Assembly (NCBI GenBank): GCA_045587125.1
Contig: JAZNBN010000016.1
Coordinates: forward strand, 96,728 to 160,727
From: Candidatus Enterousia sp.
GTDB taxonomy: Bacteria; Pseudomonadota; Alphaproteobacteria; Rs-D84
Reading direction: 5' to 3'
Length of the DNA: 64,000 nt
The notes below the pieces were generated by a model. That model saw only the letters and a program-made list of their open reading frames with translations. It was not told the DNA's origin and did no database searches. The first letter of the stretch is position 1; the number at the start of each line of letters is the position of its first letter. Of the stretch, positions 11,352-44,297 are shown piece after piece. A program made the position numbers and the translations under genes.

Positions 11352-11465
11352 AGTCTAAATATTAAAACATAGTTATGTTTATTTCAATACAAATTTATAT
11401 AACGAAATTTGATATTTATAAAAAGCGATATAGAATATATCAAAGGATATCAAAATGCTGAAACA

Positions 11466-11591
11466 ATCAGTATGCCACGTACAGGCTTTCTTAGTTTGCA
11501 TGCATTGATGACCGCAATTTCGCAATTCTATGACCCTGATTCAGAATCCAAATATGGAATTGTTGGCATAGAATTACAGGTTACAGAATAA
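11466..11591 (+). pseudogene. 3' fragment of an ASCH-domain gene (relic paralogue of the end of 24030..24812)
   Basis: ISMPRTGFLSLHALMTAISQFYDPDSESKYGIVGIELQVTE matches the last 40 aa of 24030..24812 at 31/40 positions. The upstream part of the domain is absent. Confidence 0.6.
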
Positions 11592-11601
11592 TCGTAAAAA
11601 A

Positions 11602-12372
11602 TTATTTTTCTGCCTCGGTGATTTTTGCACGCAGTTCTGGTTCGTTTGCCTTTATCCAATCGTATGCACATTCCATAAAATCAGTGAAAGATTTACGATT
11701 TGTGTACATATCGTGCAGTGTTTCAAAAATAGGATGTCCAGCAATGTTCATATCATAAAAATAATTGTATGCAATATATTGTGGTGGCGTGCTAAGTTTT
11801 GCAATTTCAGAATTTCGTATAATTGTTTCAACTACTAATTCAGACAGTAACCATTTCAGATGTGGAAAATTATATTCTGATTTATCGTCTTGGAAATGTT
11901 TCTGCCACGCATAAAACCACACAAAGTGTGTTATTTCATGCAAAGCCATTGATATGGCATCATTTGGTTCAAAGTTATAATAAATGGAAAAACTGTTGTC
12001 ATCCAAATAACGTGGGCAAATCGGGTTAAGCGCAACGAAAGCGACCATATCGTTCATAATCTCAGAACAGTCCATATCGAACGCAGATGAATATGCATTA
12101 TTCAGATTTTTTGCAACTGGCGCCCATGCGTCTTCAAACATATGGATTGAATTTTCAATTTCTGCCTGTCTGTCGTTTCTGATTTTTTGCAGTTCGTGTT
12201 CCAGATATTCAAACCTTTTTTCTTGGGGTAATGATTGTGCGTATTCAAAATCCAATGACGGGTATGCATTAAACAACATTTTTTTCCACCACATTGGGGT
12301 ATCATCTTGCTGATGATAATAAATGAAATCTATATCTGGTTCAAAATCACGTTGTTGCCATTTTAATTTCAT
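11602..12372 (-). CDS. Hypothetical protein with HExxH motif (putative zinc metallopeptidase-like)
   Basis: LHEITHFVWF motif mid-protein, no signal peptide. Its start overlaps the upstream gene's stop by one nucleotide (12372). Confidence 0.5.
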   Translation of the reverse strand: MKLKWQQRDFEPDIDFIYYHQQDDTPMWWKKMLFNAYPSLDFEYAQSLPQEKRFEYLEHELQKIRNDRQAEIENSIHMFEDAWAPVAKNLNNAYSSAFDMDCSEIMNDMVAFVALNPICPRYLDDNSFSIYYNFEPNDAISMALHEITHFVWFYAWQKHFQDDKSEYNFPHLKWLLSELVVETIIRNSEIAKLSTPPQYIAYNYFYDMNIAGHPIFETLHDMYTNRKSFTDFMECAYDWIKANEPELRAKITEAEK

Positions 12373-13085
12373 TATCTGTCCTTTGTATTTTGTATTTGTT
12401 GCATTGCGTTATATTCAGTCATCATTTTTTTGACCGCCCCTATTAAATCAGTTCGTATTACTTCTGGGGTGATATATGTGTTTGCAAAAGAATTTTCAAA
12501 CATCGTTTGCACAGGTTTGTTAAATAATTCAAGGCATATAATATCAACGATACGTTCTTTGATATTATGTGGAACATTGTATTTTTTTATAATGGGTTCT
12601 TCTATTAAAATATGCACGAATTCATGCAGGCATATATTTAATAGACCATATTGGTTTCCTTGGAATTCGGACATTCTTAATATAATACCTGGGTTTCTAC
12701 CATATGCGTATGCACCGCCCAATCCATATTCACATTGTATGTATATATGTTCTGGTAATTGTGCGTTCCAACTGGCCAATAATGGCACGATTTGTTTTTC
12801 TATGGCACGCAGCATATTGGGTATAACATCATTTGTTATCGTGGCATCTAATCGTGTTAAATCAGATTCTTTATAAATTTCATTTATGAAAAGATTACGA
12901 TAATACTTAATTTGTTCAGGGGTTGGTTTTTTAATTTCCATAAATTCATGAATGCGTTTATCATTTGGAACAAAGTTATTATATTTATATCCGAATTGTT
13001 TAAGTTTTGTATGATAATTATTATGTGCCCAGGCAGTAATTTTCCAAGATTCTTGTGCGTTGACATGTCTTAGATTAATTTTCAT
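12372..13085 (-). CDS. Hypothetical protein with HExxH motif (putative zinc metallopeptidase-like)
   Basis: LHEFVHILIEE motif at a similar relative position to its downstream neighbour, no signal peptide. Confidence 0.5.
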   Translation of the reverse strand: MKINLRHVNAQESWKITAWAHNNYHTKLKQFGYKYNNFVPNDKRIHEFMEIKKPTPEQIKYYRNLFINEIYKESDLTRLDATITNDVIPNMLRAIEKQIVPLLASWNAQLPEHIYIQCEYGLGGAYAYGRNPGIILRMSEFQGNQYGLLNICLHEFVHILIEEPIIKKYNVPHNIKERIVDIICLELFNKPVQTMFENSFANTYITPEVIRTDLIGAVKKMMTEYNAMQQIQNTKDR

Positions 13086-13171: not shown

Positions 13172-14638
13172 ATGAAAAAAACATTTTACATCTTTCGTCA
13201 TGGTGAAACAGACTATAACGCACAAAAACGTATGCAGGGCTGGGTTGATATACCACTGAATGCGAATGGTGTGGCCCAGGCACATACGCTGGCACAAAAA
13301 TTATCGGGTATTTCATTTGATTGTATTTATTCTTCACCGCTATCACGTGCATTGGATACAGCCAAGATTGTTGTTGGTGACAAAGATACAAAAATTATTA
13401 CAGACGGTGGATTACGTGAATGGAATATGGGGTTGTTGGGTGGAAAAATTGTACGTATAACGGATGAACCAATTGATACCCCGATTGATATGATGGCTGA
13501 TACAGTAAATGTTCCGTATGCACTGATATCAAATGATGATTATGTTGTACCAAATGGCGAAAGTTATAATATGTTTGCCAAACGTGTATGTGATGCGATT
13601 GCAGATATTGCAAAAAACACAGATGCACAAATAATCGGTATTGCGACCCACGGTGGTGTGGCCAAGGTTTTAATAAAATCATTAACAGATGTGCATTGGT
13701 CACGTGTAGGAATGCCAAATTGTGGATTTTTCAAATTAGAATATGATGGCGAAAAATTCACAATGCGTGAAGTGCCGGATTGGCTAATGCCAATGGTTAC
13801 AGATAATACAGGTAAACCATTAACTGTATACCATGGTACATATTACGATTTTGATTATTTTCGCCCATTGACACACTTTGGTAACTTGGTAAATGCACAA
13901 AGTAATCTAAATGAAGGCAAATGGAAACGTGATACTAATATAGATATAACAAAGCCAAAGATTATACCTGTGAATTTGCGTGCGGGTCGTTGGGACGAAA
14001 TTCCGGATTTGAACGACCACAGTGTTCAGAATTTTATGGGCATTTTATTTCAGTATATGTGTGGCGATAAAATTGCTGACTTTATTCGTGTGTTAAATAT
14101 TCGTGATGAAGCAGAATTTTATAAAAATATTTCATCAGCAAAACAGGCGGTGTTGGAAATGGATATTGATGTTCCATGGCAATTTGATTGGGTGTGTGAA
14201 CCTGTGCGTGGGACAATGCCTATGGACACAGTGCACGATGAATTAGGTTTAGAAACATTGTTTGATGTTCATAGTGTGGAAAACCTGTTCTTTCAGCGAA
14301 TGATTTTATATTTTGAATCAATTGGTTTAACTGGGTTTAAGTATAAAAATTATACCGAAGGTCCTGGTGATATGTCGTATATAAACCTTCGTCAGAATAA
14401 TATTGTGCGAACGGATAAAGTGTTGCCATCGCATTCTTTGCCGACGTCAAAACAGACTGCACAATTGAATCGGTTGCGTGCAGATTTTGCAAAGGCGTAT
14501 AAGCCACGTAAATTTACAAAGATTGAAAAAGAAATGTTGTTGGGTGAATTAATTAACTTTGCGACATTTAGGTTTGATGAAATAAAATACATGTCAAAAA
14601 AATCATGGTCAAAATCGAACAATCAATCTGAAAGATAA
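13172..14638 (+). CDS. Histidine phosphatase (PGAM-like) fused to a ~280-aa C-terminal domain of unknown function (possible ART-like)
   Basis: N-terminus FYIFRHGETDYN..QGWVDIPLN..G..QA and HGG are histidine-phosphatase motifs. C-terminus has VYHGTYYDFDYF..THFG and KYKNYTEGPGDMSYINL. Confidence 0.7.
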   Translation: MKKTFYIFRHGETDYNAQKRMQGWVDIPLNANGVAQAHTLAQKLSGISFDCIYSSPLSRALDTAKIVVGDKDTKIITDGGLREWNMGLLGGKIVRITDEPIDTPIDMMADTVNVPYALISNDDYVVPNGESYNMFAKRVCDAIADIAKNTDAQIIGIATHGGVAKVLIKSLTDVHWSRVGMPNCGFFKLEYDGEKFTMREVPDWLMPMVTDNTGKPLTVYHGTYYDFDYFRPLTHFGNLVNAQSNLNEGKWKRDTNIDITKPKIIPVNLRAGRWDEIPDLNDHSVQNFMGILFQYMCGDKIADFIRVLNIRDEAEFYKNISSAKQAVLEMDIDVPWQFDWVCEPVRGTMPMDTVHDELGLETLFDVHSVENLFFQRMILYFESIGLTGFKYKNYTEGPGDMSYINLRQNNIVRTDKVLPSHSLPTSKQTAQLNRLRADFAKAYKPRKFTKIEKEMLLGELINFATFRFDEIKYMSKKSWSKSNNQSER

Positions 14639-16875: not shown

Positions 16876-17136
16876 CTAAATTTGTTTATCTAATTTAATT
16901 TCCCAACACTTATCTGTCCCCAGGTCATTAGGCTTGGTTGTTATGGCAACAGATGAAATCTTGTATGTAGCGGTTGTATTAGTATAACCTTTATGAAAAA
17001 CAACAGTGCTATAATGTTTATTGGTTAATCGTTTATTCCAATATTCAGAGCATTCACGATATTCTGATGTTTTTTTGCCTGATATAATCAGGTCAAACCA
17101 ATGATGTTTTAGTACAAGATGCAATACGTTGTTCAT
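16876..17136 (-). CDS. ASCH-domain protein (small)
   Basis: LKHHWFDLIISGKKTSEYR...VVFHKGY pattern of the ASC-1 homology beta-barrel. Confidence 0.6.
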   Translation of the reverse strand: MNNVLHLVLKHHWFDLIISGKKTSEYRECSEYWNKRLTNKHYSTVVFHKGYTNTTATYKISSVAITTKPNDLGTDKCWEIKLDKQI

Positions 17137-19815: not shown

Positions 19816-20871
19816 TTAACTATTCTGTTTTAATTTCTTAAAAAGACCTATCGCAACAGGGGTGTCTAAGTAATGTGAGCTTTGTTCAGTGGGCTGTGTT
19901 TCATATAATTCTTTATCGTTCTTTGGTGATACGTAAATCTTTTTTTGTAATCGCATAATTCGTTGTCCTAACATTCCATAATACGGATTTTGGTCATCGA
20001 TTCTGTGGCCGTCCTCGTGGGATAGTATCATCAGAAAATCTAGCAAGGGATTGCTTTCAATCAATGCGTTTGTTGTGATTCTTATCTGCTTAGTCGAATG
20101 GCTATAAGTATTTTTACCGTCATGGCTTGGCATAAAACCGCCAGCAACCCCAAATTTTTGTGCACTTGCATCTATTATGAGTTTGGCAAAATTATCGATT
20201 TCTTTTTGTGATAAATGTTCAAATTTTTGTGCCATATCAAAAAGATATTTGTTCTCAGATATAATATTCCAATATGTTTCTAATCGTTCGCCAGTAATAA
20301 AGTCTCTATTCCTTAAATCGGTTAACGTTATCATTTCTTGTGCATATCTTTTATTTAGCTCAATTATTGACTTGTTATCTTGCGGGGTAATTTGTGCTAA
20401 TTCTTTTTCATATTTGCGTTCCAATTTTTCTATTTCTGGGTCAAATGTAGAATAATTGGTGGCAGATATTTCTGGTGCGGCTTGCCATTCTGTATCTGCT
20501 TGTGCTAAATCGGGATATTGTGTTTTTAGAATTTCATATTCTTGTGTGTTGGTCGGATTTAAATTGTATTTTATTAGTATTGCACGTATTTTGTTTTCTG
20601 CATGAAAAGCGGCATTTATTTCATCCCATGTTTTCCAGTGTTTGATACTTGCGTACATGGTATCAAGGTCATCATTGAACATCGCTTTGAAATCTTGCCA
20701 AGTGTGATTTCTGTTGCCATATTTTTTGTATGCTTCATAAAACAGTTTATCCTCAGGTGACATTTTTTCTACTTGCATAATATAGTCCAAGAAAGGTGTC
20801 TGTGTTTCGTTGGCTTGGATTATTTTATTAATAATATTTTTTGTTGCGATATTGAATTGTTCTGCTTTCAT
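19816..20871 (-). CDS. Hypothetical protein with HExxH motif (putative metallopeptidase-like)
   Basis: ILSHEDGHRIDDQ near the C-terminus, helical N-terminal two thirds, no signal peptide. Confidence 0.5.
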   Translation of the reverse strand: MKAEQFNIATKNIINKIIQANETQTPFLDYIMQVEKMSPEDKLFYEAYKKYGNRNHTWQDFKAMFNDDLDTMYASIKHWKTWDEINAAFHAENKIRAILIKYNLNPTNTQEYEILKTQYPDLAQADTEWQAAPEISATNYSTFDPEIEKLERKYEKELAQITPQDNKSIIELNKRYAQEMITLTDLRNRDFITGERLETYWNIISENKYLFDMAQKFEHLSQKEIDNFAKLIIDASAQKFGVAGGFMPSHDGKNTYSHSTKQIRITTNALIESNPLLDFLMILSHEDGHRIDDQNPYYGMLGQRIMRLQKKIYVSPKNDKELYETQPTEQSSHYLDTPVAIGLFKKLKQNS

Positions 20872-20880
20872 TGTCTATCT

Positions 20881-20940
20881 CTTCTTTCCCGCAAATTATA
20901 CCACAGGCAATCACACTTTGCATCACAGTTTTTTGTGTTT
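20881..20940 (-). promoter_or_regulatory. Promoter/leader cassette, copy 3
   Basis: About 50 nt identical to copy 2 (TTTCCCGCAAATTATACCACAGGCAATCACACTTTGCATCACAGTTTTT on + strand), directly upstream of 19816..20871. Confidence 0.65.
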
Positions 20941-21075
20941 TGGGGGCATGGGGTGGGTACGGAGTGGAATCGCGCGCCCCAAATAAAATAAAACCCAACC
21001 GCCCGCACTTTTGTGTTCGCAAAAAGAAACGCTGGAATTTTAAGATTGTATACGGAAAAAGTGGATTATAATTAC

Positions 21076-21104
21076 TTGAAAAAAACAAAAACCTGCTTTA
21101 TAAT
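21076..21104 (+). promoter_or_regulatory. Sigma70-type promoter of the tyrS leader
   Basis: TTGAAA (21076-21081), 17-nt spacer, TATAAT (21099-21104). Confidence 0.55.
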
Positions 21105-21113
21105 AAATGAGAA

Positions 21114-21194
21114 ATGACAAAAAGTAGTTTGCATTTTAATCAGATTTCAGACGGTGCGCAATTTTGCGTACGTGGTTTTTATTACGCCTATTGA
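21114..21194 (+). CDS. Candidate tyrS leader peptide (26 aa, MTKSSLHFNQISDGAQFCVRGFYYAY)
   Basis: ATG-to-TGA ORF ending TTT TAT TAC GCC TAT TGA. The stop abuts the first arm of the alternative hairpins. The RBS is weak. Confidence 0.5.
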   Translation: MTKSSLHFNQISDGAQFCVRGFYYAY

Positions 21195-21263
21195 CCCCTT
21201 ATGGTGTTATGGGTTTGATCGGCTTTGGCACCATAAGGGGTATATGCCAAAGCCAATTTTTTT
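21195..21263 (+). promoter_or_regulatory. Antiterminator/terminator switch (attenuator) upstream of tyrS
   Basis: 12-bp stem 21195-21206/21229-21240 is mutually exclusive with the 9-bp stem 21221-21229/21246-21254, which is followed by T7. Confidence 0.6.
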
Positions 21264-21295
21264 ATTCATTAAACAAAAAACAAAGGATTTAAGTA

Positions 21296-22495
21296 ATGAA
21301 AACCAAAGAACAAATTATTGATGAAATTCTGGATAGGGGCATAATCGTTGATATTTTGCCATCGCGTGCGGAATTTAAGAAAAAATTATTAACCGAAAAA
21401 CTGCGCTTTTTTATCGGCGCCGACCCGACAAATACATCGCTGCACCTGTCGCATGCCAAGAACTTTATGTTATTGGAAGAGTTCAGAAAATTGGGACACG
21501 AAGTCTTTGTATTGTTCGGTGACTTTACCGCATGCATTGGCGACCCCAGTGACCGCAATTCTGCGCGCGCCAGATTAACACCGGAACAAGTACACGAATT
21601 TTCAGCAGACTGGGTGCGTCAAATCTCGCCAATTATCAACTTTAACGACCCAGACAACCCAGCCAAAGTGGTCTTTAATGGTGAATGGTTGAATAAACTG
21701 ACTATGCATGATTTGATTGAATTGTCGTCAAATACAACGGTTCAACACATGTTGGAACGTGATATGTTTCAAAAACGGTTGGCGAACAACCGGCCAATTC
21801 ACCTGCACGAATTCCTGTACCCAATTTTCCAGGGCTTTGATTCTGTTGCACTGGACGCGGATGTTGAATTGTGTGGCACGGACCAGACGTTTAATGCGCT
21901 GATGGGGCGGACATTATTGCGCAAATTAAAGAACAAAGAAAAATTCATTGTGTGCAATAACCTGATGGAAAATCCGATAACTGGCGAACTGATGTCAAAA
22001 TCACGTGGTACAGGTGTTTTCTTGAACACAGATGCAGACACGATGTTTGCGCAAATCATGGCGCAACCCGATGAAATGATACGCATATTGTTGATAAATA
22101 ATACACACGTTCCATTGTCGGAAATAGACGCGTTGGATATTGAAAATGAACCGATGCGTGCAAAACTGTTCACCGCACAAAAAATAACAGAAATATTCCA
22201 CGGTGCGGGCGCGGCGATTTTGGCACAGGAAAACTGGTGCAAAACATTTTCTGACCGGTCTTTCCCAGACAATGCACCAGAAATCAAAACCACGCAAGAC
22301 GAATTATCCGTAATGGAAATCTTGAAATTAGGTATGCCGGACGCATCAAACAGTGAATTGCGCAGACTTGTTACCCAAAACGCAGTTACTATAAACGATG
22401 ACAAGGCAAACGACCTAAATCAAGCATTCATAACCGATAAACCATTATGCGTGCGTGTTGGTCGTAAAATATTTTTCAAAGTCACAAAAAAATAA
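21296..22495 (+). CDS. tyrS: Tyrosyl-tRNA synthetase
   Basis: HIGH-type motif TSLHLSH, KMSKS-type motif LMSKSRG, C-terminal S4-like domain (ELRRLVTQNAVTIND). Confidence 0.88.
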   Translation: MKTKEQIIDEILDRGIIVDILPSRAEFKKKLLTEKLRFFIGADPTNTSLHLSHAKNFMLLEEFRKLGHEVFVLFGDFTACIGDPSDRNSARARLTPEQVHEFSADWVRQISPIINFNDPDNPAKVVFNGEWLNKLTMHDLIELSSNTTVQHMLERDMFQKRLANNRPIHLHEFLYPIFQGFDSVALDADVELCGTDQTFNALMGRTLLRKLKNKEKFIVCNNLMENPITGELMSKSRGTGVFLNTDADTMFAQIMAQPDEMIRILLINNTHVPLSEIDALDIENEPMRAKLFTAQKITEIFHGAGAAILAQENWCKTFSDRSFPDNAPEIKTTQDELSVMEILKLGMPDASNSELRRLVTQNAVTINDDKANDLNQAFITDKPLCVRVGRKIFFKVTKK

Positions 22496-22506
22496 AGAGG
22501 TAAAAA

Positions 22507-23508
22507 ATGGCAATATTGGAACGATTGGCAGAAATGCAAAATGCCCATGGTAAAAACCGTCTGGTAATGATACTGGACGGTATGGGTGTTGCGGTAATGA
22601 GTAAATTACTGGATGCAAATGGATTTTTTTGTCGTCATTTGGCGGACGTTGAAACGGCCATTATTCCTGCGACAACCGTGGCGGCAACAACCGCATATCG
22701 CACAGGCAAAATGCCGTGGGAAACAGGATTTATTGGTTGGGCGCAATATTATTCTGAAACAGACGAAGTTATCGAAGTATTCAGAAGTACAAACCTATAT
22801 ACAGGCGAAGTGTCTAAAATGCCCCAAACCACAAATACGCTACCGTGTAAAACAGTAGTTGAAGAATTGAATAACAAAGGTCGTTCTGCGTACGAAGTTA
22901 TGCCTGGCTTTGCCCCGGGCGGTTTTGATACGTTTGAACAATGGCTGGCACGTATTGTGGAATTGTGCAATACAGAATCTGACGCGTATATTTACGCATA
23001 CTGGACAGAACCAGATTCAACCCTGCATGAATTAGGCTCAGACGCCCCAGCGGTCAAAACATTGTTGCGCGATATGGAACAACAGATAGAATTTGCACTA
23101 AAACAGATTCGCAATAAAACGGATGTCTTGATAACAGCCGACCATGGGCATACAGATATTGAATCTTTGTTTGTTGACGATGTTCCAGAATTGCTGGACT
23201 GTTTGTTGCATCCATTGTCACTGGAAAGTCGTTGTGTGTCGCTGTTTATAAAACCAGAATCTCTGGCAGAATTTCCAGGCCTGTTCAATAAACACTTCGG
23301 CAAATGGTTCAAATTGGTGACCAAATCAGAATTTGAAAAACAATACCTGCATGCAGAATGTCCTGTGCGTTTTATTGGTGACTTTGTTGCGCTGGCAACT
23401 GATAAATATGACTTGAAACAGCGACCAGATACAATTGTTCTTAAAAGTCACCACGCAGGTATAACTTCAGACGAATTAGAAATACCGATTATAAAAATAA
23501 GTATATGA
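22507..23508 (+). CDS. Alkaline-phosphatase-superfamily enzyme (nucleotide pyrophosphatase/phosphodiesterase-like)
   Basis: MILDGMG, nucleophile region PATTVAATTAYRTG, ITADHGHTD. Starts 12 nt after the tyrS stop. Confidence 0.65.
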   Translation: MAILERLAEMQNAHGKNRLVMILDGMGVAVMSKLLDANGFFCRHLADVETAIIPATTVAATTAYRTGKMPWETGFIGWAQYYSETDEVIEVFRSTNLYTGEVSKMPQTTNTLPCKTVVEELNNKGRSAYEVMPGFAPGGFDTFEQWLARIVELCNTESDAYIYAYWTEPDSTLHELGSDAPAVKTLLRDMEQQIEFALKQIRNKTDVLITADHGHTDIESLFVDDVPELLDCLLHPLSLESRCVSLFIKPESLAEFPGLFNKHFGKWFKLVTKSEFEKQYLHAECPVRFIGDFVALATDKYDLKQRPDTIVLKSHHAGITSDELEIPIIKISI

Positions 23509-23541
23509 AATATTGAGTTTTTATAAATCGTAGTCTAAGAT

Positions 23542-24033
23542 ATGACAAAGGAAACCAAAATGTCAGAACGTGCAATGTTTAAGGGTGTAATTAACCTGAT
23601 TATAAAACAAGACGACAAAGTCTTACTGTTCTTTCGCAATGATGGATTTTTTAACTATGATGGTGGTTGGTGGGTTTTGCCGGCAGGACACATTGAACAG
23701 GGTGAAACTGCCATGGCAGCAGCCATACGTGAGGCAAAAGAAGAACTGGATATCGACATTGCGCCCGACGACATCAAATGCGTACACGTTACCAGCAATC
23801 TGGCCAGTCGCACAGAATCTTTTGATTTCTTTTTTGAGGTATCAAAATACACTGGCACAATTCGCAACTGCGAAGGGGATAAATGTGCCGATATGCAGTA
23901 TTTCACATTGGACGAAGTCGCCAAATTGAAGAACGTTGTTTCAACAACCCGTATATCATTGGCGGGATTGGCGCGTGGCGAAATATATTCCGAATGCAAA
24001 TCATATCGCAGTGAACAAAAGGATACAAAATGA
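23542..24033 (+). CDS. Nudix hydrolase
   Basis: Nudix box GHIEQGETAMAAAIREAKEELDI. Confidence 0.85.
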   Translation: MTKETKMSERAMFKGVINLIIKQDDKVLLFFRNDGFFNYDGGWWVLPAGHIEQGETAMAAAIREAKEELDIDIAPDDIKCVHVTSNLASRTESFDFFFEVSKYTGTIRNCEGDKCADMQYFTLDEVAKLKNVVSTTRISLAGLARGEIYSECKSYRSEQKDTK

Positions 24034-24812
24034 TAAAAGAACTAAGTTATTCTGCATATATTTTGCCGGTGCGTGATGGACAGGTCGCCTTGCTGAAATA
24101 CGGTGAAAATGGATACGGACCAATTGGTGGGCGACTGGATGATGGCGAAGATTTTTTGACTGCGCTGCGGCGTGAACTGACCGAAGAACTGGGCGATGGT
24201 GCAACAATGCTGGCAGATAGTGCGATTGAAATTCCGGTGCCATATGCATTTCGTCACCCAACCCCCGAACGGGCACAACGTCGTGGCACATGGGGCGAAG
24301 AACATCATTTTTATATCGTTCACGTCCCAGATGATATGGAATTGAATTTCTGCGAAAATCGCCCCGAAGAAATTTCGGTTGCATGGGTCGCACCAGACGA
24401 CTTATTAACCCCACAAATCACACCATTTGACGATATGCGTGAATTTTATTCGAACCACATATTACCGAACCTAAATTGTCGGTTTTCAATGAGCCTGCGT
24501 CCTGAATACTATGAAATGGTGCTTTCTGGCGAAAAAGATATTGAACTGCGTCTGTATGATGAAAAGCGTCGCAGAATGCACAACGGTGACACTGTTTTGA
24601 TTTACAACGCGCAAAATCGCAATGATTATATTCGTGCAAAGATCGTTCGCCTGCATATTGTGCGCAGTTTTGCAGACTTGGCCACAAAAATCAGTATGCC
24701 ACGCACAGGATTTGCGTCGTTAAACGCACTGATGTCTGCAATATCAAAATTCTATGATGCTGAAATGGAATCCAAATACGGTATTGTGGGGATAGAGTTA
24801 GAGGTTATATAA
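24030..24812 (+). CDS. Nudix hydrolase fused to a C-terminal ASCH domain
   Basis: Nudix box GGRLDDGEDFLTALRRELTEELG. C-terminal ~115 aa is ASCH-like (MSLRPEYYEMVLSGEKDIELRLYDEKRR...). The ATGA start overlaps the upstream Nudix gene. Confidence 0.8.
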   Translation: MIKELSYSAYILPVRDGQVALLKYGENGYGPIGGRLDDGEDFLTALRRELTEELGDGATMLADSAIEIPVPYAFRHPTPERAQRRGTWGEEHHFYIVHVPDDMELNFCENRPEEISVAWVAPDDLLTPQITPFDDMREFYSNHILPNLNCRFSMSLRPEYYEMVLSGEKDIELRLYDEKRRRMHNGDTVLIYNAQNRNDYIRAKIVRLHIVRSFADLATKISMPRTGFASLNALMSAISKFYDAEMESKYGIVGIELEVI

Positions 24813-25146
24813 CCACAAACTCGTTTAATTCCAGCCAATCAGTTTTCTGAAAATCGGGAAAGTATTTGTTAAAAAAGTCAATGTGGACCGTACGCCAGTA
24901 TGCCAGGGACAGGTCGCCTTCGCCCTCTATTTTTGCCCATGCGTCATCAATGTCACAAAACCGACACTTTCGAACGGCTGTAATTTGAATTCGTATTGTT
25001 TCGCCACGACTGTTATAGATTTCCTGAATGTCACCAATTTTTGCCATTGGTTCTTCGTCATAATTCCGGCTACAGGTTCCACGTTTGTGCCCATTGCGCA
25101 CCAGTTCAAACAATTCATCATTATCAAAAGTCCAACGGTTATCCAT
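24805..25146 (-). CDS. ASCH-domain protein
   Basis: ELVRNGHKRGTCS...IGDIQEIYNSRGE..IQITAVR...EGEGDLSLAYWR pattern of ASCH (YqfB-like) proteins. Confidence 0.65.
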   Translation of the reverse strand: MDNRWTFDNDELFELVRNGHKRGTCSRNYDEEPMAKIGDIQEIYNSRGETIRIQITAVRKCRFCDIDDAWAKIEGEGDLSLAYWRTVHIDFFNKYFPDFQKTDWLELNEFVVI

Positions 25147-25187
25147 GCGCTACACCATTTTCTGTGATTATAAGTTTATTAACCTCG

Positions 25188-25385
25188 TCACTCGCCACCA
25201 TTTATCCACGCCAGGCAACCGTCATATCTGTGTGGTTCCATCGCCAATGGGATACATAGAATTGGTTTGTTTGGGTCAATTATACTTTCAAATAATTTAT
25301 TTGAAATAATTGTTTGTTCGTCGCTACCACCACCAAGTATTATATGTATTATTGTTTCCCTTTGTTTAGTGTTTCTATAACCCAA
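25188..25385 (-). pseudogene. Possible N-terminal fragment of an S51/glutamine-amidotransferase-like peptidase gene
   Basis: IILGGGS...KPILCIPLA resembles the start of peptidase E-like proteins. Only 65 codons remain, and they overlap the end of the upstream Nudix gene. Confidence 0.3.
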
Positions 25386-25765
25386 TTTTTTATAACGGTT
25401 GGATACAGTTTTGTATCGGCCAGTTCCGATATTTTTATTTTTTCAAATCCGATTAAATCTTCCTGGCTGGTAATGTTTTCGGTGTTTATATCTACACGTT
25501 TAACAACTTCAATCCCGTACAGGAAATTTCCATTGGAATCATAGCCCTGATTTTCAATAGCCAATAAGATACCATCATGAATAGTGATGTCAGATTCTGC
25601 AACACCCATTTCTTCATTCAGTTCACGTGTAATGCACTGATTCAATGTTTCGCCAATTTCCAATCCGCCACCAGGCAAGAAATAATAACCGCCAGCCAAG
25701 TGCTTGCATAAAACGATGCTATCACCTTGCACAATTAAACATCTGCTTGTTGTTTGTGTTCGCAT
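25349..25765 (-). CDS. Nudix hydrolase
   Basis: Nudix box GGGLEIGETLNQCITRELNEEMGV. Confidence 0.85.
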   Translation of the reverse strand: MRTQTTSRCLIVQGDSIVLCKHLAGGYYFLPGGGLEIGETLNQCITRELNEEMGVAESDITIHDGILLAIENQGYDSNGNFLYGIEVVKRVDINTENITSQEDLIGFEKIKISELADTKLYPTVIKNWVIETLNKGKQ

Positions 25766-25784
25766 GACTATATTCCCCCTTGTT

Positions 25785-26630
25785 TTATCTTATAATCGTG
25801 TGCTTGAACCACTGTTCTTGGAAAGCGGTTTTTTGTTCAATATATTCATCTGCAAAATCAAACCCATCTGGTACAACAACCAGTTTGTCGTCATTATCAT
25901 TAGTACGGTGAATGATTGCGATACATCGCCCCAGAAAATCCTTTAACGGATAATCTGGTCCCAATACATATGCATCTAATTCTTCGCCATCGCCCGATAT
26001 GGTGTTTGGTATAAATCCATAATTCACTTCGTATGTAAAGCCGTGTTTTGGATGTTTACTACCCATGGGGCGGTCCATTTGTACACGAACTAATTTGCCC
26101 AAGAAATCACGTGCATTGACTGGTATGGGATTTACCATTTTCTGATAATTCAAAACCATATTAAACCCTGGAACAATAGACGGAATAAATTCATTGTCGT
26201 ACTGCATGTGTTGAATATCCGCCAGTGTTGCCCACTTGACGGATTGTACCTCGCTTGCCTGTGGTTTTAAATCAGAAATTTTAGCATTACTGTGCACTAG
26301 CCACACATCAACGAAATCCATCGGTCGCTTAATTGTGCCAACCAGTACAGATTTTTCGGGGTCTGGTGTCAGTCCTAACTCTTCCATTGTTTCGCGAACA
26401 CACGCATCCCAACTGGATTCGCCTGCGATTGCCCCGCCACCAGTCTGGCCCCACATGTTTGGAAATTTCTTGGCCGTACCCATGCGTTGTTGCAACAGGT
26501 ATTCGCCGGCATCATTTACAATCCATACATGCACAGACAGCTTGTTCAATCCGCTGGGGATTTGTTGTCCGCGTTCAATTGTTGAAACTGGATTGCGCAA
26601 ATTATCATACAGGGTGTTTTTTTCGGACAT
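25785..26630 (-). CDS. Nudix hydrolase fused to a short inorganic-pyrophosphatase-like C-terminal domain
   Basis: Nudix box GGGAIAGESSWDACVRETMEELGL. C-terminus has NYGFIPNT, GDGEELDAYVLG and NDDKLVVV, resembling family I PPase motifs. Confidence 0.7.
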   Translation of the reverse strand: MSEKNTLYDNLRNPVSTIERGQQIPSGLNKLSVHVWIVNDAGEYLLQQRMGTAKKFPNMWGQTGGGAIAGESSWDACVRETMEELGLTPDPEKSVLVGTIKRPMDFVDVWLVHSNAKISDLKPQASEVQSVKWATLADIQHMQYDNEFIPSIVPGFNMVLNYQKMVNPIPVNARDFLGKLVRVQMDRPMGSKHPKHGFTYEVNYGFIPNTISGDGEELDAYVLGPDYPLKDFLGRCIAIIHRTNDNDDKLVVVPDGFDFADEYIEQKTAFQEQWFKHTIIR

Positions 26631-26768
26631 TTAAAATCCTTATGGCTGGGGTTATAGAATCAGTATAGATTACAATATTTATGTTGTCAAAGTTTATGTA
26701 TGCTGATTTTTTCACAGCATACAATCCTTTTTAACATCTGTTGAATTTGGTTTATACTGAATTCCGGA

Positions 26769-27004
26769 ATGGCGGAAAGGTTTTATCTTTGTATTGATTT
26801 AAAGAGTTTCTTTGCCTCGGTCGAAGCGGTTGACCGTGGGCTGGACCCATTTACAACAAACCTGGTGGTGGCAGACCCGTCACGGGGGCGGGGGTCGGTC
26901 TGTTTGGCGATAACGCCGGCGATGAAGGCGCTGGGGATTCGAACCGATGCCGGGTCTTTGAAATCCCGCGTGGGGTCGAATACATCACCGCCATGCCCCG
27001 CATG
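26769..27004 (+). pseudogene. Y-family DNA polymerase (DinB/UmuC-like) N-terminal relic, frameshifted and truncated
   Basis: YLCIDLKSFFASVEAVDRGLDPFTTNLVVADPSRGRGSVCLAITPAMKALGI. After a 1-nt frameshift near 26941 it continues RNRCRVFEIPRGVEYITAMPRM, and similarity ends at ~27004. Visibly GC-rich relative to its surroundings. Confidence 0.7.
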
Positions 27005-27050
27005 ACTTCACCACTAAACACAAAAATCAAAAGAGCAGGAATATTCAAAC

Positions 27051-27081: not shown

Positions 27082-27157
27082 TGGTGCCGGTTGTCGGACT
27101 TGAACCAACGACCTACTGATTACAAATCAGCCGCTCTACCAGCTGAGCTAAACCGGC
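27082..27157 (-). tRNA. tRNA-Thr (anticodon UGU)
   Basis: Manual fold: GCCGGTT acceptor, GCTC/GAGC D-stem, anticodon loop TTTGTAA, T-arm GTTGG-TTCAAGT-CCGAC, encoded CCA; 76 nt. Confidence 0.95.
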
Positions 27158-43618: not shown

Positions 43619-44215
43619 TCAATTTTGCTGGATAATACTTTGCAACACAAAACCATATTTGACGATAGGTGTTTCATTGGATGCCGCCAAAAAATCGTCT
43701 TTGGTAATATTTACATCAATTGAATTATCAAAAGTGATTTTTGTTGCGTGCACAGATGATTTTTTATCCATCAATAAATCCAAGCAATCTTTTGCATTTA
43801 TACGAACCAGTCCAGCAACTTCATCAGGTTGAAAATGAAAATCTGTGAATCCATTTGATATTTTATTTGCATAAATATGTGCAAAAGCACGATCGTGCCA
43901 ATTTTTTTGTGGTTTATCTTGTCTCCAAAATACAATATCCAACGCAATTGCATTTGATACATCTATATCAATTCCAATTTCTTCATGAATTTCACGATGA
44001 AATGCATCACGTACAGTTTCGCCTGCCAGAACATGCCCCGATGCAGTTGTGTAAAGTTTTCCGGAATCCGCACGAATTTGAAAATATACATTTCCAATAT
44101 CGTCATATATCCAACAGTGAACAGTTTTATGCCATAACCCGTTTTGATGAACAATATCACGCTTTTCTGTACCGATTTTATTCATATATTCGTCATAAAT
44201 ATCCAGATGTTCCAT
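43619..44215 (-). CDS. Nudix hydrolase (IDI/YfcD-like)
   Basis: Start at the ATG behind AAGGGAG. LWHKTVHCWIY and Nudix box GHVLAGETVRDAFHREIHEEIGI. Confidence 0.8.
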   Translation of the reverse strand: MEHLDIYDEYMNKIGTEKRDIVHQNGLWHKTVHCWIYDDIGNVYFQIRADSGKLYTTASGHVLAGETVRDAFHREIHEEIGIDIDVSNAIALDIVFWRQDKPQKNWHDRAFAHIYANKISNGFTDFHFQPDEVAGLVRINAKDCLDLLMDKKSSVHATKITFDNSIDVNITKDDFLAASNETPIVKYGFVLQSIIQQN

Positions 44216-44260
44216 AAAATCTCCCTTTGCTAAGCGCATGATAATAAAATAGAAAGAAAA

Positions 44261-44297
44261 ACAAAACAAAAAATGTCCCGTTGGGACATTTTGTTTT
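44261..44297 (-). terminator. Terminator after 44373..44927
   Basis: AATGTCCC-loop-GGGACATT, T-rich on the minus strand. Confidence 0.7.

Follow-up and report, generated by a model that had tools for sequence, protein, structure and literature searches.

The subject of this study is the segment 21296-26630 of a 64-kb stretch of Candidatus Enterousia DNA (the window, always meant at its full length). Two convergent units lie there, which together carry the tyrosine-tRNA ligase gene tyrS, a gene of the nucleotide pyrophosphatase/phosphodiesterase (NPP) type from the alkaline-phosphatase (AP) superfamily, four intact Nudix domains, two ASCH domains, a truncated inorganic pyrophosphatase (PPase) domain and one gene relic. 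In our opinion the Nudix and ASCH genes are probably accessory cassettes for nucleotide house-cleaning or salvage that accreted beside a tyrS-NPP operon under predicted tyrosine attenuation, rather than parts of one new system. Comparison of species shows a stable core of attenuator, tyrS and NPP-like gene, next to shifting cassettes, namely NudA with the Nudix-ASCH fusion, the Nudix-miniPPase fusion with NudC, and ASCH. An earlier reading of the sequence (the original prediction) had proposed a single coherent module coupled to tyrS; this idea is supported only in part, because the Nudix/ASCH complement has been gained, lost and rearranged between congeneric species. Its broader suggestion, that the genes encode hydrolases of nucleotide derivatives in general, agrees with the domains and intact motifs of the predicted proteins.

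Gene Content and Arrangement of the Locus

Window proteins were scanned against Pfam and NCBIfam over a map of open reading frames (ORFs). For every gene these scans agreed with the gene list and domain assignments made originally, and the proposed layout of two convergent operons was supported as well; each has a promoter-like site. The features are as follows.

21076-21104, plus strand: sigma-70-type promoter of the tyrS operon, TTGAAA-17-TATAAT, with 11/12 consensus matches; its position is kept in related species
21117-21194, plus strand: leader ORF of 26 codons, MTKSSLHFNQISDGAQFCVRGFYYAY-stop, with 3 Tyr within the last four codons and a conserved GFYYAY-stop tail
21195-21240, plus strand: antiterminator hairpin of 12 bp, CCCCTTATGGTG / CACCATAAGGGG, beginning directly after the leader stop codon
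21221-21262, plus strand: intrinsic terminator with a 9-bp stem, GGCTTTGGC / GCCAAAGCC, and a T-run, recognised by sequence and conserved in 11 species
21296-22495, plus strand: tyrS, tyrosine-tRNA ligase, 399 aa (TIGR00234, 276 bits; PF00579, E 1.1e-53)
22507-23508, plus strand: predicted cytoplasmic NPP-type enzyme of the AP superfamily, 333 aa (PF01663, E 1.8e-13)
23542-24033, plus strand: NudA, stand-alone Nudix hydrolase, 163 aa (PF00293, E 3.9e-17), with an intact Nudix box
24030-24812, plus strand: fusion of an N-terminal Nudix and a C-terminal ASCH domain, 260 aa (PF00293 and PF04266)
24805-25146, minus strand: stand-alone ASCH protein of the 3s9x/1t62 type, 113 aa (PF04266, E 3.4e-16), with an EGEGD motif
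25188-25385, minus strand: gene relic, N-terminal 65 aa, matching at 71% identity the N-terminus of a gene that locus L012 has intact (202 aa)
25349-25765, minus strand: NudC, stand-alone Nudix hydrolase, 138 aa (PF00293, E 1.5e-9), with an intact box
25785-26630, minus strand: fusion of an IDI/YfcD-like Nudix domain and a mini-PPase, 281 aa (PF00293 and PF00719, profile positions 31-102 of 153)
26662-26690, minus strand: promoter-like site of the minus-strand unit, TTGACA-17-TATACT, which agrees with the consensus at 11/12 positions and precedes the start codon of Nudix-PPase by 32 nt

The genes on the plus strand are separated by spacers of 11 nt and 33 nt and by a 4-nt overlap, with no convincing terminators between them. 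The close spacing of tyrS and the AP gene was anticipated correctly, though the spacer measures 11 nt and not 12; it contains an AGAGG ribosome-binding site. The overlap is the ATGA that had been described between NudA and the Nudix-ASCH gene, and the second of these two Nudix proteins is indeed fused to ASCH. The cluster genes have 37-44% GC, near the 42% of tyrS.

Conservation of the Locus across Species

How much of this gene set is kept in other bacteria? Enterousia genomes, from the order Rs-D84, are smaller than 1 Mb and have neither a tricarboxylic acid cycle nor respiration (PMC12306168). The nearest loci in public genomes belong to Candidatus Enterousia metagenome-assembled genomes (MAGs), with protein identity up to 95%. 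We mapped the window proteins onto the best 80 of 281 AP loci, taken at species level; related species in this sample are not independent of each other. The AP gene directly follows tyrS in all 12 Enterousia-like loci (L001-L011 and L031), and this pair is the only constant part of the set that runs from tyrS to the Nudix-PPase gene: the six other elements vary among the 12 loci and are absent around the AP gene in the 68 other species. The segment between the AP gene and tRNA-Thr/U32 is a variable region.

For example, the closest relatives, L001 and L005, keep NudA, Nudix-ASCH, ASCH and Nudix-PPase, but NudC and the relic are missing (25141-25784 of the window). Locus L002 has neither NudA nor the whole minus-strand unit (24816-26651 of the window). 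An extra gene has been found between NudA and the Nudix-ASCH fusion in L009, and in L010 a different gene set, including a Nudix gene without the PPase domain, lies between the AP gene and the U32 peptidase gene. In L011 the Nudix-PPase, ASCH, a stand-alone ASCH and NudA genes are located upstream of tyrS and in other orientations. The Nudix/ASCH genes stay within a few kb of the tyrS-AP pair in three differently arranged Enterousia genomes (L001, L010 and L011). Neither tyrS nor any cluster gene was detected within 8 kb of the AP gene in 15 other alphaproteobacterial species (L012-L026), whose AP proteins have 37-74% identity.

Among the 80 loci tyrS is the most frequent neighbour family of the AP gene (15/80). 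In Clostridium sp. CAG:1000 (L033 6308-8984) a T-box is followed by tyrS, a spacer of ~15 nt and the AP gene; a convergent gene comes next, which makes AP the last gene of a two-gene operon. In a Bacilli MAG (L039), also a Firmicute, the order is T-box, tyrS, a spacer of ~550 nt and then AP. A search directly upstream of the AP genes, those of Firmicutes included, gave no T-box-like core motif other than the ones preceding tyrS. The proposed association of tyrS with NPP, Nudix and ASCH genes is thus borne out in part: the tyrS-AP pair, seen in 12/12 Enterousia-like species and in Clostridium sp. CAG:1000, is not unique to this genome, whereas the full Nudix/ASCH set is not conserved.

The wider association also extends beyond one genome: some Firmicute AP genes adjoin an ASCH gene, an ASCH-Nudix fusion or a mini-PPase. 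An ASCH of the same subfamily as that of the window fusion is located directly upstream of AP in L047 and L049, and in L041 (9661-9999) a stand-alone mini-PPase, 58% identical to the window domain, comes after AP. In two other Firmicute species, L051 and L071 (7076-7888), the gene directly upstream of AP encodes a 270-aa ASCH-Nudix fusion with the reverse domain order. The opposite order of the domains means that ASCH and Nudix were fused independently in these species and in the window.

Predicted Tyrosine Attenuation of tyrS

The tyrS protein is well above the TIGR00234 cut-off (276 bits versus 113.8). Its identity across Enterousia species is 84-95%, where that of the AP protein is 70-95%, and this high conservation suggests that tyrS of the window is the housekeeping copy. 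The leader ORF ending in GFYYAY-stop is present in 11/11 Enterousia-like species, its tail being invariant and its N-terminus drifting. The 5′ arm of the terminator sits within the antiterminator loop and one base is shared with the 3′ arm of the antiterminator. Across species 99% of cells in the antiterminator alignment are paired, and at one base pair compensatory change has taken two independent forms, UA to AU and UA to CG. This covariation score was reached by 0/500 shuffles, modest support because the sequences are 90% identical. The terminator stem is invariant or changes to G-U/G-C in all 11 species, with 99% pairing.

No T-box was detected: model RF00230 had no match at the gathering threshold in the window, nor at E up to 10 in 20800-21400, and the same search, as a positive control, recovered the T-boxes upstream of tyrS in L033, L039 and L073. 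The tyrosine attenuation suspected originally is supported by a predicted leader-peptide mechanism other than the T-box. When tyrosine is plentiful, the ribosome would reach the leader stop codon and cover the 5′ arm of the antiterminator, so that the terminator forms. When Tyr-tRNA is scarce, it would stall at the YY codons, the antiterminator would form and the operon would be read through. This geometry is classical: a ribosome at the stop codon masks the 5′ arm and one stalled at the YY codons leaves it free.

The leader resembles the trp and pheST/pheM attenuators of Escherichia coli in its short ORF, rich in the cognate codon and here upstream of an aminoacyl-tRNA synthetase gene, and in the leader stop codon that abuts a stem competing with a U-run terminator. 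It departs from them in that tyrosine would be the sensed amino acid and tyrS the gene, in a gut alphaproteobacterium; in addition, we identified no obvious partner with which the antiterminator 5′ arm would form a 1:2 pairing. No described tyrS leader-peptide attenuator turned up in our literature search. The tyrosine leader peptide would add the tyrS gene of an uncultured lineage with very small genomes to the classic cases of attenuation.

The NPP-Like Enzyme

The AP protein carries the motifs ATTVAATTAYRTG and ADHGHTD that had been noted before, and its proposed NPP-like nature is confirmed both by PF01663 and by Foldseek. Seven residues (D24, T57, D170, H174, D212, H213 and H316) are invariant in 15 AP sequences, namely the window protein and 14 homologues of 36-90% identity. 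By analogy to bacterial NPP we take the six Asp and His residues D24, D170, H174, D212, H213 and H316 to be metal ligands and T57 to be the candidate nucleophile. The AlphaFold (AF2) model has a pLDDT of 93.6, and its best Foldseek matches are ENPP5, ENPP6, phosphonoacetate hydrolase (PhnA) and autotaxin (TM score ~0.7, ~15% identity, probability 1.0), with E-values of 1e-14 to 1e-16 for ENPP5, ENPP6 and PhnA. These structural neighbours act on nucleotides, choline phosphodiesters, lysolipids and phosphonoacetate. A sequence comparison with solved structures also matched ENPP4 (E 1.2e-5), which is deposited under the name bis(5'-adenosyl)-triphosphatase.

By its sequence and model the AP protein is an NPP-clade enzyme with an intact predicted active site. 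With ENPP4/5/6 and phosphonoacetate hydrolase it shares the fold, PF01663, the assigned bimetal ligand set and the candidate Thr nucleophile. In contrast to these enzymes, it is smaller (333 aa), has only ~15% identity to them, and its N-terminus reads as one without signal peptide or membrane anchor, so the enzyme is probably cytoplasmic. The AP family counts 1344 homologues at E <= 0.001; no NCBIfam model matches the window protein, and some of its relatives also match PglZ (PF08665). No relative of the family was found in IMG/VR viral contigs, and PHROGs gave no match for the AP protein or the 113-aa ASCH. A prophage or phage origin of the AP gene was rejected on both these grounds (no IMG/VR relative, no PHROGs match). 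The tyrS-NPP pair, standing under two independent tyrosine-sensing leaders, offers a first way into the function of a large, so far uncharacterised branch of the alkaline-phosphatase superfamily.

Nudix Domains

The four clustered Nudix boxes (23686-23745, 24129-24188, 25610-25669 and 26379-26438) all match GX5EX7REXXEE, in line with the superfamily signature GX5EX7REUXEEXGU, and PF00293 exceeds its gathering score in all four proteins. The count of four intact boxes and two ASCH domains in ~3.1 kb, given in the original prediction, is upheld by motif and PF04266 searches; the 64-kb window holds five Nudix boxes, four of them within these 3.1 kb. The four domains are mutually similar at the level of the Nudix box only, and recent tandem duplication was rejected on this ground. 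By sequence they represent distinct subfamilies brought together.

Comparison with NCBIfam equivalogs (MutT, NudG, NudI, RppH, NudC, NudE, ADP-ribose and Ap4A hydrolases) gave best scores of 16-46 bits, where the cut-offs are 95-475. As no equivalog cut-off was reached, the four proteins cannot be assigned a substrate on this basis. The best matches below cut-off were NTP pyrophosphohydrolases (MutT, NudG, NudI), IDI and RppH, and the Nudix half of the Nudix-ASCH fusion weakly matches the plant Ap4A hydrolase 1f3y (E 0.0075). In their canonical box, PF00293 and these weak best matches the domains resemble house-cleaning Nudix proteins of the MutT/NudG/NudI type and the IDI/YfcD-like branch, but two of the four are fused, one to ASCH and the other to a truncated PPase. 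To our knowledge, a Nudix domain fused to either partner has not been characterised.

The fifth Nudix gene (43619-44269, minus strand, 216 aa; PF00293, E 1.1e-8) has its highest similarity, 30% identity over 98 aa, to the Nudix domain of the Nudix-PPase fusion and lies in a housekeeping context with Lgt, tRNA-Ser, a GNAT gene and a gene of the nucleoside phosphorylase type.

The Nudix-PPase Fusion and the Mini-PPase

The C-terminal domain of the Nudix-PPase fusion is a pyrophosphatase core of ~110 aa (PF00719, 33.2 bits versus 23.5; PDB PPase 3d63, E 6.5e-8) and is the most conserved part of its family. The motifs DR, NYGFIPNT, DG-E-LD and DDK are invariant in the family and align with the metal- and pyrophosphate (PPi)-binding residues of PPases. 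Thus the domain resembles the family I soluble inorganic pyrophosphatase in reaching the PF00719 threshold and in keeping the metal/PPi-binding motifs. However, a full-length family I enzyme has ~150-175 aa and a complete active site, whereas this domain has ~110 aa in all relatives and corresponds to the central part only (profile positions 31-102 of 153), both ends being absent. By our mapping the missing residues are presumably the N-terminal Glu/Lys/Glu and C-terminal Tyr/Lys of the E. coli active site. We know of no characterisation of this widespread 110-aa truncated pyrophosphatase.

In a metagenome sample that included the human gut the mini-PPase was mostly a stand-alone protein of ~110 aa. 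Its 26 long forms included fusions with Nudix (5/26), glyoxalase-like (6/26) and nucleotide/deoxynucleoside kinase (2/26) domains. Its same-strand neighbours included GNAT (12/88), Nudix (11/88), LigT (6/88) and Ham1 (3/88) genes; methyltransferase genes were also among the commonest, and ASCH was not in the top 25 neighbouring families. The domain has also been found in two viral contigs, in one of them beside RNase H-like and DNA-ligase-like ORFs, as judged from translations read by eye. The loci behind these observations are L181-L260, L101, L102 and L041 9661-9999. Nudix and Ham1 NTP pyrophosphatases release PPi, and the position of the mini-PPase beside these two unrelated classes fits a role in removing the PPi product. 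The Nudix part of the window fusion is closest to the IDI/YfcD-like branch, and the domain combination argues for a PPi-releasing (d)NTP ((deoxy)nucleoside triphosphate) pyrophosphohydrolase. The fusion predicts PPi release by its Nudix partner and defines a widespread truncated pyrophosphatase.

In all four look-ups of homologues (42-45% identity, contigs of 25-29% GC) a 282-aa Nudix-miniPPase gene was followed by a Nudix gene of 133-158 aa, and in 1/4 an ASCH gene came third. We rejected strict orthology between this Firmicute Nudix-PPase/Nudix/ASCH operon and the minus-strand unit of the window as far as the second and third genes are concerned. Nudix of 133 aa in the Firmicute operon resembles NudA (28-32% identity), not NudC, and its 130-aa ASCH has no detectable similarity to either window ASCH; since these two genes are not orthologous, the likeness is one of domain order. 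Directly upstream of the operon (L081 6663-6971; also L082-L088) there is a 102-aa gene with sub-threshold similarity to nucleoside 2-deoxyribosyltransferase-like proteins (PF05014, E 0.0011), which would fit an operon for deoxynucleotide sanitation.

ASCH Domains

Both ASCH domains are far above the PF04266 cut-off of 21.2 (Nudix-ASCH fusion 44.8 bits, 113-aa ASCH 60.3 bits). We looked for the octapeptide of N4-acetylcytidine (ac4C) amidohydrolases and erasers, GxKxx[E/T/S]xR with catalytic Lys and Glu/Thr. The ASCH part of the fusion has SGEKDIELR, of the complete GxKxxExR type, and is related to Pyrococcus PH0355 (2z0t; E 1.1e-14) and PF0455. The 113-aa protein matches PDB 3s9x at E 3.3e-13; its octapeptide, GHKRGTCS, is non-standard in that it keeps Lys and Thr but ends in S in place of R. 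According to a 2026 preprint (bioRxiv 10.64898/2026.02.27.708502), ASCH proteins from both octapeptide groups are able to deacetylate ac4C, whether the free nucleoside or ac4C within tRNA. With the known ac4C amidohydrolases and tRNA ac4C erasers (YqfB, TthASCH, Pyrococcus Pku) both window proteins share the PF04266 domain, and the fusion also shares GxKxxExR. They differ from these in that one ASCH is fused to Nudix and the other has an octapeptide class outside the assays of the cited study; the closest structures, 3s9x/1t62 and PH0355, are structural-genomics entries.

The Nudix-ASCH fusion family includes 152 homologues of 50-93% identity, of which the named ones are alphaproteobacterial MAGs. 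Our literature search returned nothing relevant on the co-occurrence of Nudix and ASCH. The fusion would tie ASCH deacylases, recently reported as ac4C erasers, to hydrolysis in the nucleotide pool.

The relic of a second Nudix-ASCH copy, which had been suspected near 11466, was located at 11409-11591 (plus strand), with 76% identity over the last 42 aa of the fusion. The further ASCH gene placed at 16876 is a more ambiguous case. This 86-aa ORF (16876-17136, minus strand) has an SGKKTSEYR motif and matches the phage family phrog_625 at E 3.7e-19, but its PF04266 score of 19.8 bits is below the cut-off and covers only the N-terminal motif. It adjoins a LysR-type regulator gene and may be a small phage-type ASCH-like protein.

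The 65-aa relic of the minus-strand unit had no Pfam match. By tblastn its residues 7-63 have 71% identity to L012 9609-9782, where the intact 202-aa version adjoins the AP gene.

Island and Defence Contexts Elsewhere

Orthologues of the Nudix-ASCH fusion (50-67% identity) had no tyrS or AP gene within 6 kb. One lies between an integrase/excisionase element and Mrr with an ADP-ribosylglycohydrolase, another between HsdR, GmrSD and two N6_N4 methyltransferases, and a third beside an integrase, Bro-N and a SLFN-like helicase. The Nudix-miniPPase operons are flanked by type I restriction-modification (R-M), RloB/AAA_21, NERD, HinfI R-M, Fic and AAA_5 genes, the flanks differing between contigs. 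In PADLOC-DB v2 all four Nudix proteins matched PDC-S07, a single-gene candidate with a Nudix protein (three of them with E between 1e-11 and 2e-7, the fusion with E 0.0017), and one weak match to PDC-M11B was obtained (E 0.002). No specific defence-system match was found in this database, and the AP protein and 113-aa ASCH had no match at all. A known defence system was rejected for the locus, the PADLOC matches being generic Nudix similarity.

Origin and Role of the Cluster

According to the accretion reading, the plus-strand operon would be arranged as promoter, Tyr leader peptide, antiterminator/terminator, tyrS, NPP-like gene, NudA and Nudix-ASCH, and the convergent minus-strand operon, with its own promoter, as Nudix-miniPPase, NudC, relic and the second ASCH type. 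The Nudix domains would hydrolyse non-canonical or surplus (d)NTPs or compounds of the nucleoside diphosphate-X (NDP-X) kind, and the PPase-like domain of the fusion would remove the PPi product. The ASCH proteins would deacylate N4-acylcytidine, either free or in tRNA, and the NPP-like enzyme would cleave a phosphodiester or pyrophosphate bond in a small substrate. Even if accretion is the only process involved, an organism of <1 Mb still retains, within 64 kb, no fewer than five Nudix genes and two ASCH genes, besides the ASCH relic and the borderline ASCH-like ORF. This abundance suggests pressure on nucleotide-pool hygiene in a probable scavenger, a lifestyle deduced from the reduced metabolism of Enterousia.

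Several points weigh against this interpretation. The linkage kept in L001, L010 and L011 could reflect selection rather than slow decay of synteny. The occurrence of ASCH, ASCH-Nudix or mini-PPase beside AP in Firmicutes (L041, L047, L049, L051 and L071) hints at a functional link, and pure accretion fails to explain it. House-cleaning is the default reading for Nudix proteins, and co-transcription of the plus-strand genes is judged solely from the spacers, the overlap and the absence of convincing terminators.

Could the eight genes form one module, turning over dinucleoside polyphosphates (ApnA), ADP-ribose or NDP-X compounds and coupled to tyrS as a source of ApnA, as proposed originally? 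We regard this as very unlikely. The conservation of tyrS-AP in the genus and its recurrence in a Firmicute, the match of AP to ENPP4, the weak similarity of the fusion Nudix to an Ap4A hydrolase and the persistence of Nudix/ASCH genes near tyrS-AP in three arrangements would all suit such a module. However, its gene content is not conserved even inside the genus, its components occur apart from tyrS and AP outside it, and the genes form two convergent units with separate promoters. The ApnA link itself found no specific support: no NCBIfam equivalog for Ap4A or ADP-ribose hydrolase reached its cut-off, and the PPase fusion fits PPi release from NTPs by a (d)NTP pyrophosphohydrolase, while cleavage of Ap4A and ADP-ribose releases no PPi. 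It is also improbable, in our estimation, that the Nudix/ASCH/mini-PPase cassettes are a mobile repertoire for conflict and defence with an incidental position beside tyrS. Such genes might clean modified (deoxy)nucleotides from the pool, so that scavenged or phage-derived bases avoid triggering modification-dependent restriction, or might deplete nucleotides during infection. The restriction and integrase contexts of Nudix-ASCH orthologues and Nudix-miniPPase operons, the mini-PPase of two viral contigs, the 56.5% GC relic of a Y-family polymerase that borders the cluster together with tRNA-Thr, and the PDC-S07 matches of all four Nudix proteins speak for this version. But these last matches are generic and no other specific PADLOC model was matched, the AP family is absent from IMG/VR, and the GC content of the cluster is near that of tyrS. 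Moreover, accessory genes of small genomes tend to share few variable regions with defence genes, and the commonest neighbours of the mini-PPase (GNAT, Nudix, LigT, Ham1 and methyltransferase) are not defence genes.

A narrower alternative takes only tyrS and the NPP-like enzyme as a functional unit, induced together when Tyr-tRNA is short, with the Nudix/ASCH genes as bystanders; candidate substrates would be tyrosyl-adenylate or another tyrosyl-nucleotide, O-phosphotyrosine, or a step in the processing of tRNA-Tyr. The 11-nt distance of AP from tyrS behind the Tyr attenuator in 12/12 Enterousia-like species, the two-gene T-box operon of Clostridium sp. CAG:1000 with the looser arrangement of L039 (~550 nt), the two Tyr-sensing RNA mechanisms over one gene pair, and the first rank of tyrS among AP neighbours are consistent with it. 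Against this, tyrS is lacking within 8 kb of AP in ~50 other Firmicute species and in 15 species of Alphaproteobacteria, AP neighbours are otherwise highly variable, and no T-box-like core motif was detected directly before an AP gene. L033 and L039 are probably relatives of each other, in which case the recurrence could amount to one additional event; by our own estimate it has P of roughly 0.02-0.04 against prior expectation. We hold this alternative, too, to be unlikely. Finally, two further readings deserve mention: (a) the NPP-like enzyme would be a dedicated partner of tyrosyl-tRNA synthetase, with a tyrosyl or tyrosine-linked nucleotide as substrate, and would stand under different Tyr-sensing RNAs in two phyla (the leader-peptide attenuator of Enterousia and the T-box of a Clostridium-like Firmicute), and (b) this enzyme and the ASCH, Nudix and mini-PPase proteins would be a loosely linked, horizontally exchanged tool-kit with which genome-reduced gut bacteria detoxify scavenged modified nucleotides. 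The tool-kit would explain why the same domain combinations (Nudix-PPase with Nudix and ASCH after it, and ASCH-Nudix or mini-PPase adjoining AP) recur in unrelated gut lineages with small genomes and beside genes of modification-dependent restriction; both readings are speculative, and we would give them a limited chance.

Other Features of the Window

The rest of the window is ordinary chromosome, with genes for ThyA, a class II aminoacyl-tRNA synthetase, Lgt, a nucleoside phosphorylase-type protein, a P-type ATPase and an ABC exporter. The relic of the Y-family DNA polymerase (IMS/UmuC-DinB N-terminus, 78 codons; 26769-27005, plus strand) was recognised by a sub-threshold match (E 5.6e-4) and adjoins tRNA-Thr (27082-27157, minus strand). 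Its GC content of 56.5% compares with 37% for the genome, and L002 has a copy at 94% identity. It sits at the border of the variable region and is probably what remains there of foreign or mobile DNA.

The gene at 13172-14638 (plus strand) encodes a His_Phos_1 domain followed by ~290 residues without family match; the sole match of this tail, below threshold, is ART-PolyVal, a domain known from polyvalent proteins of phages and conjugative elements. Three hypothetical proteins without Pfam match, all on the minus strand, have an HExxH motif: HEITH (11602-12372), HEFVH (12372-13085) and HEDGH (19816-20871). They may represent an uncharacterised metallopeptidase-like family, and the 237-aa HExxH protein looks, by eye, like an ORF near the AP gene in L015 and L016.

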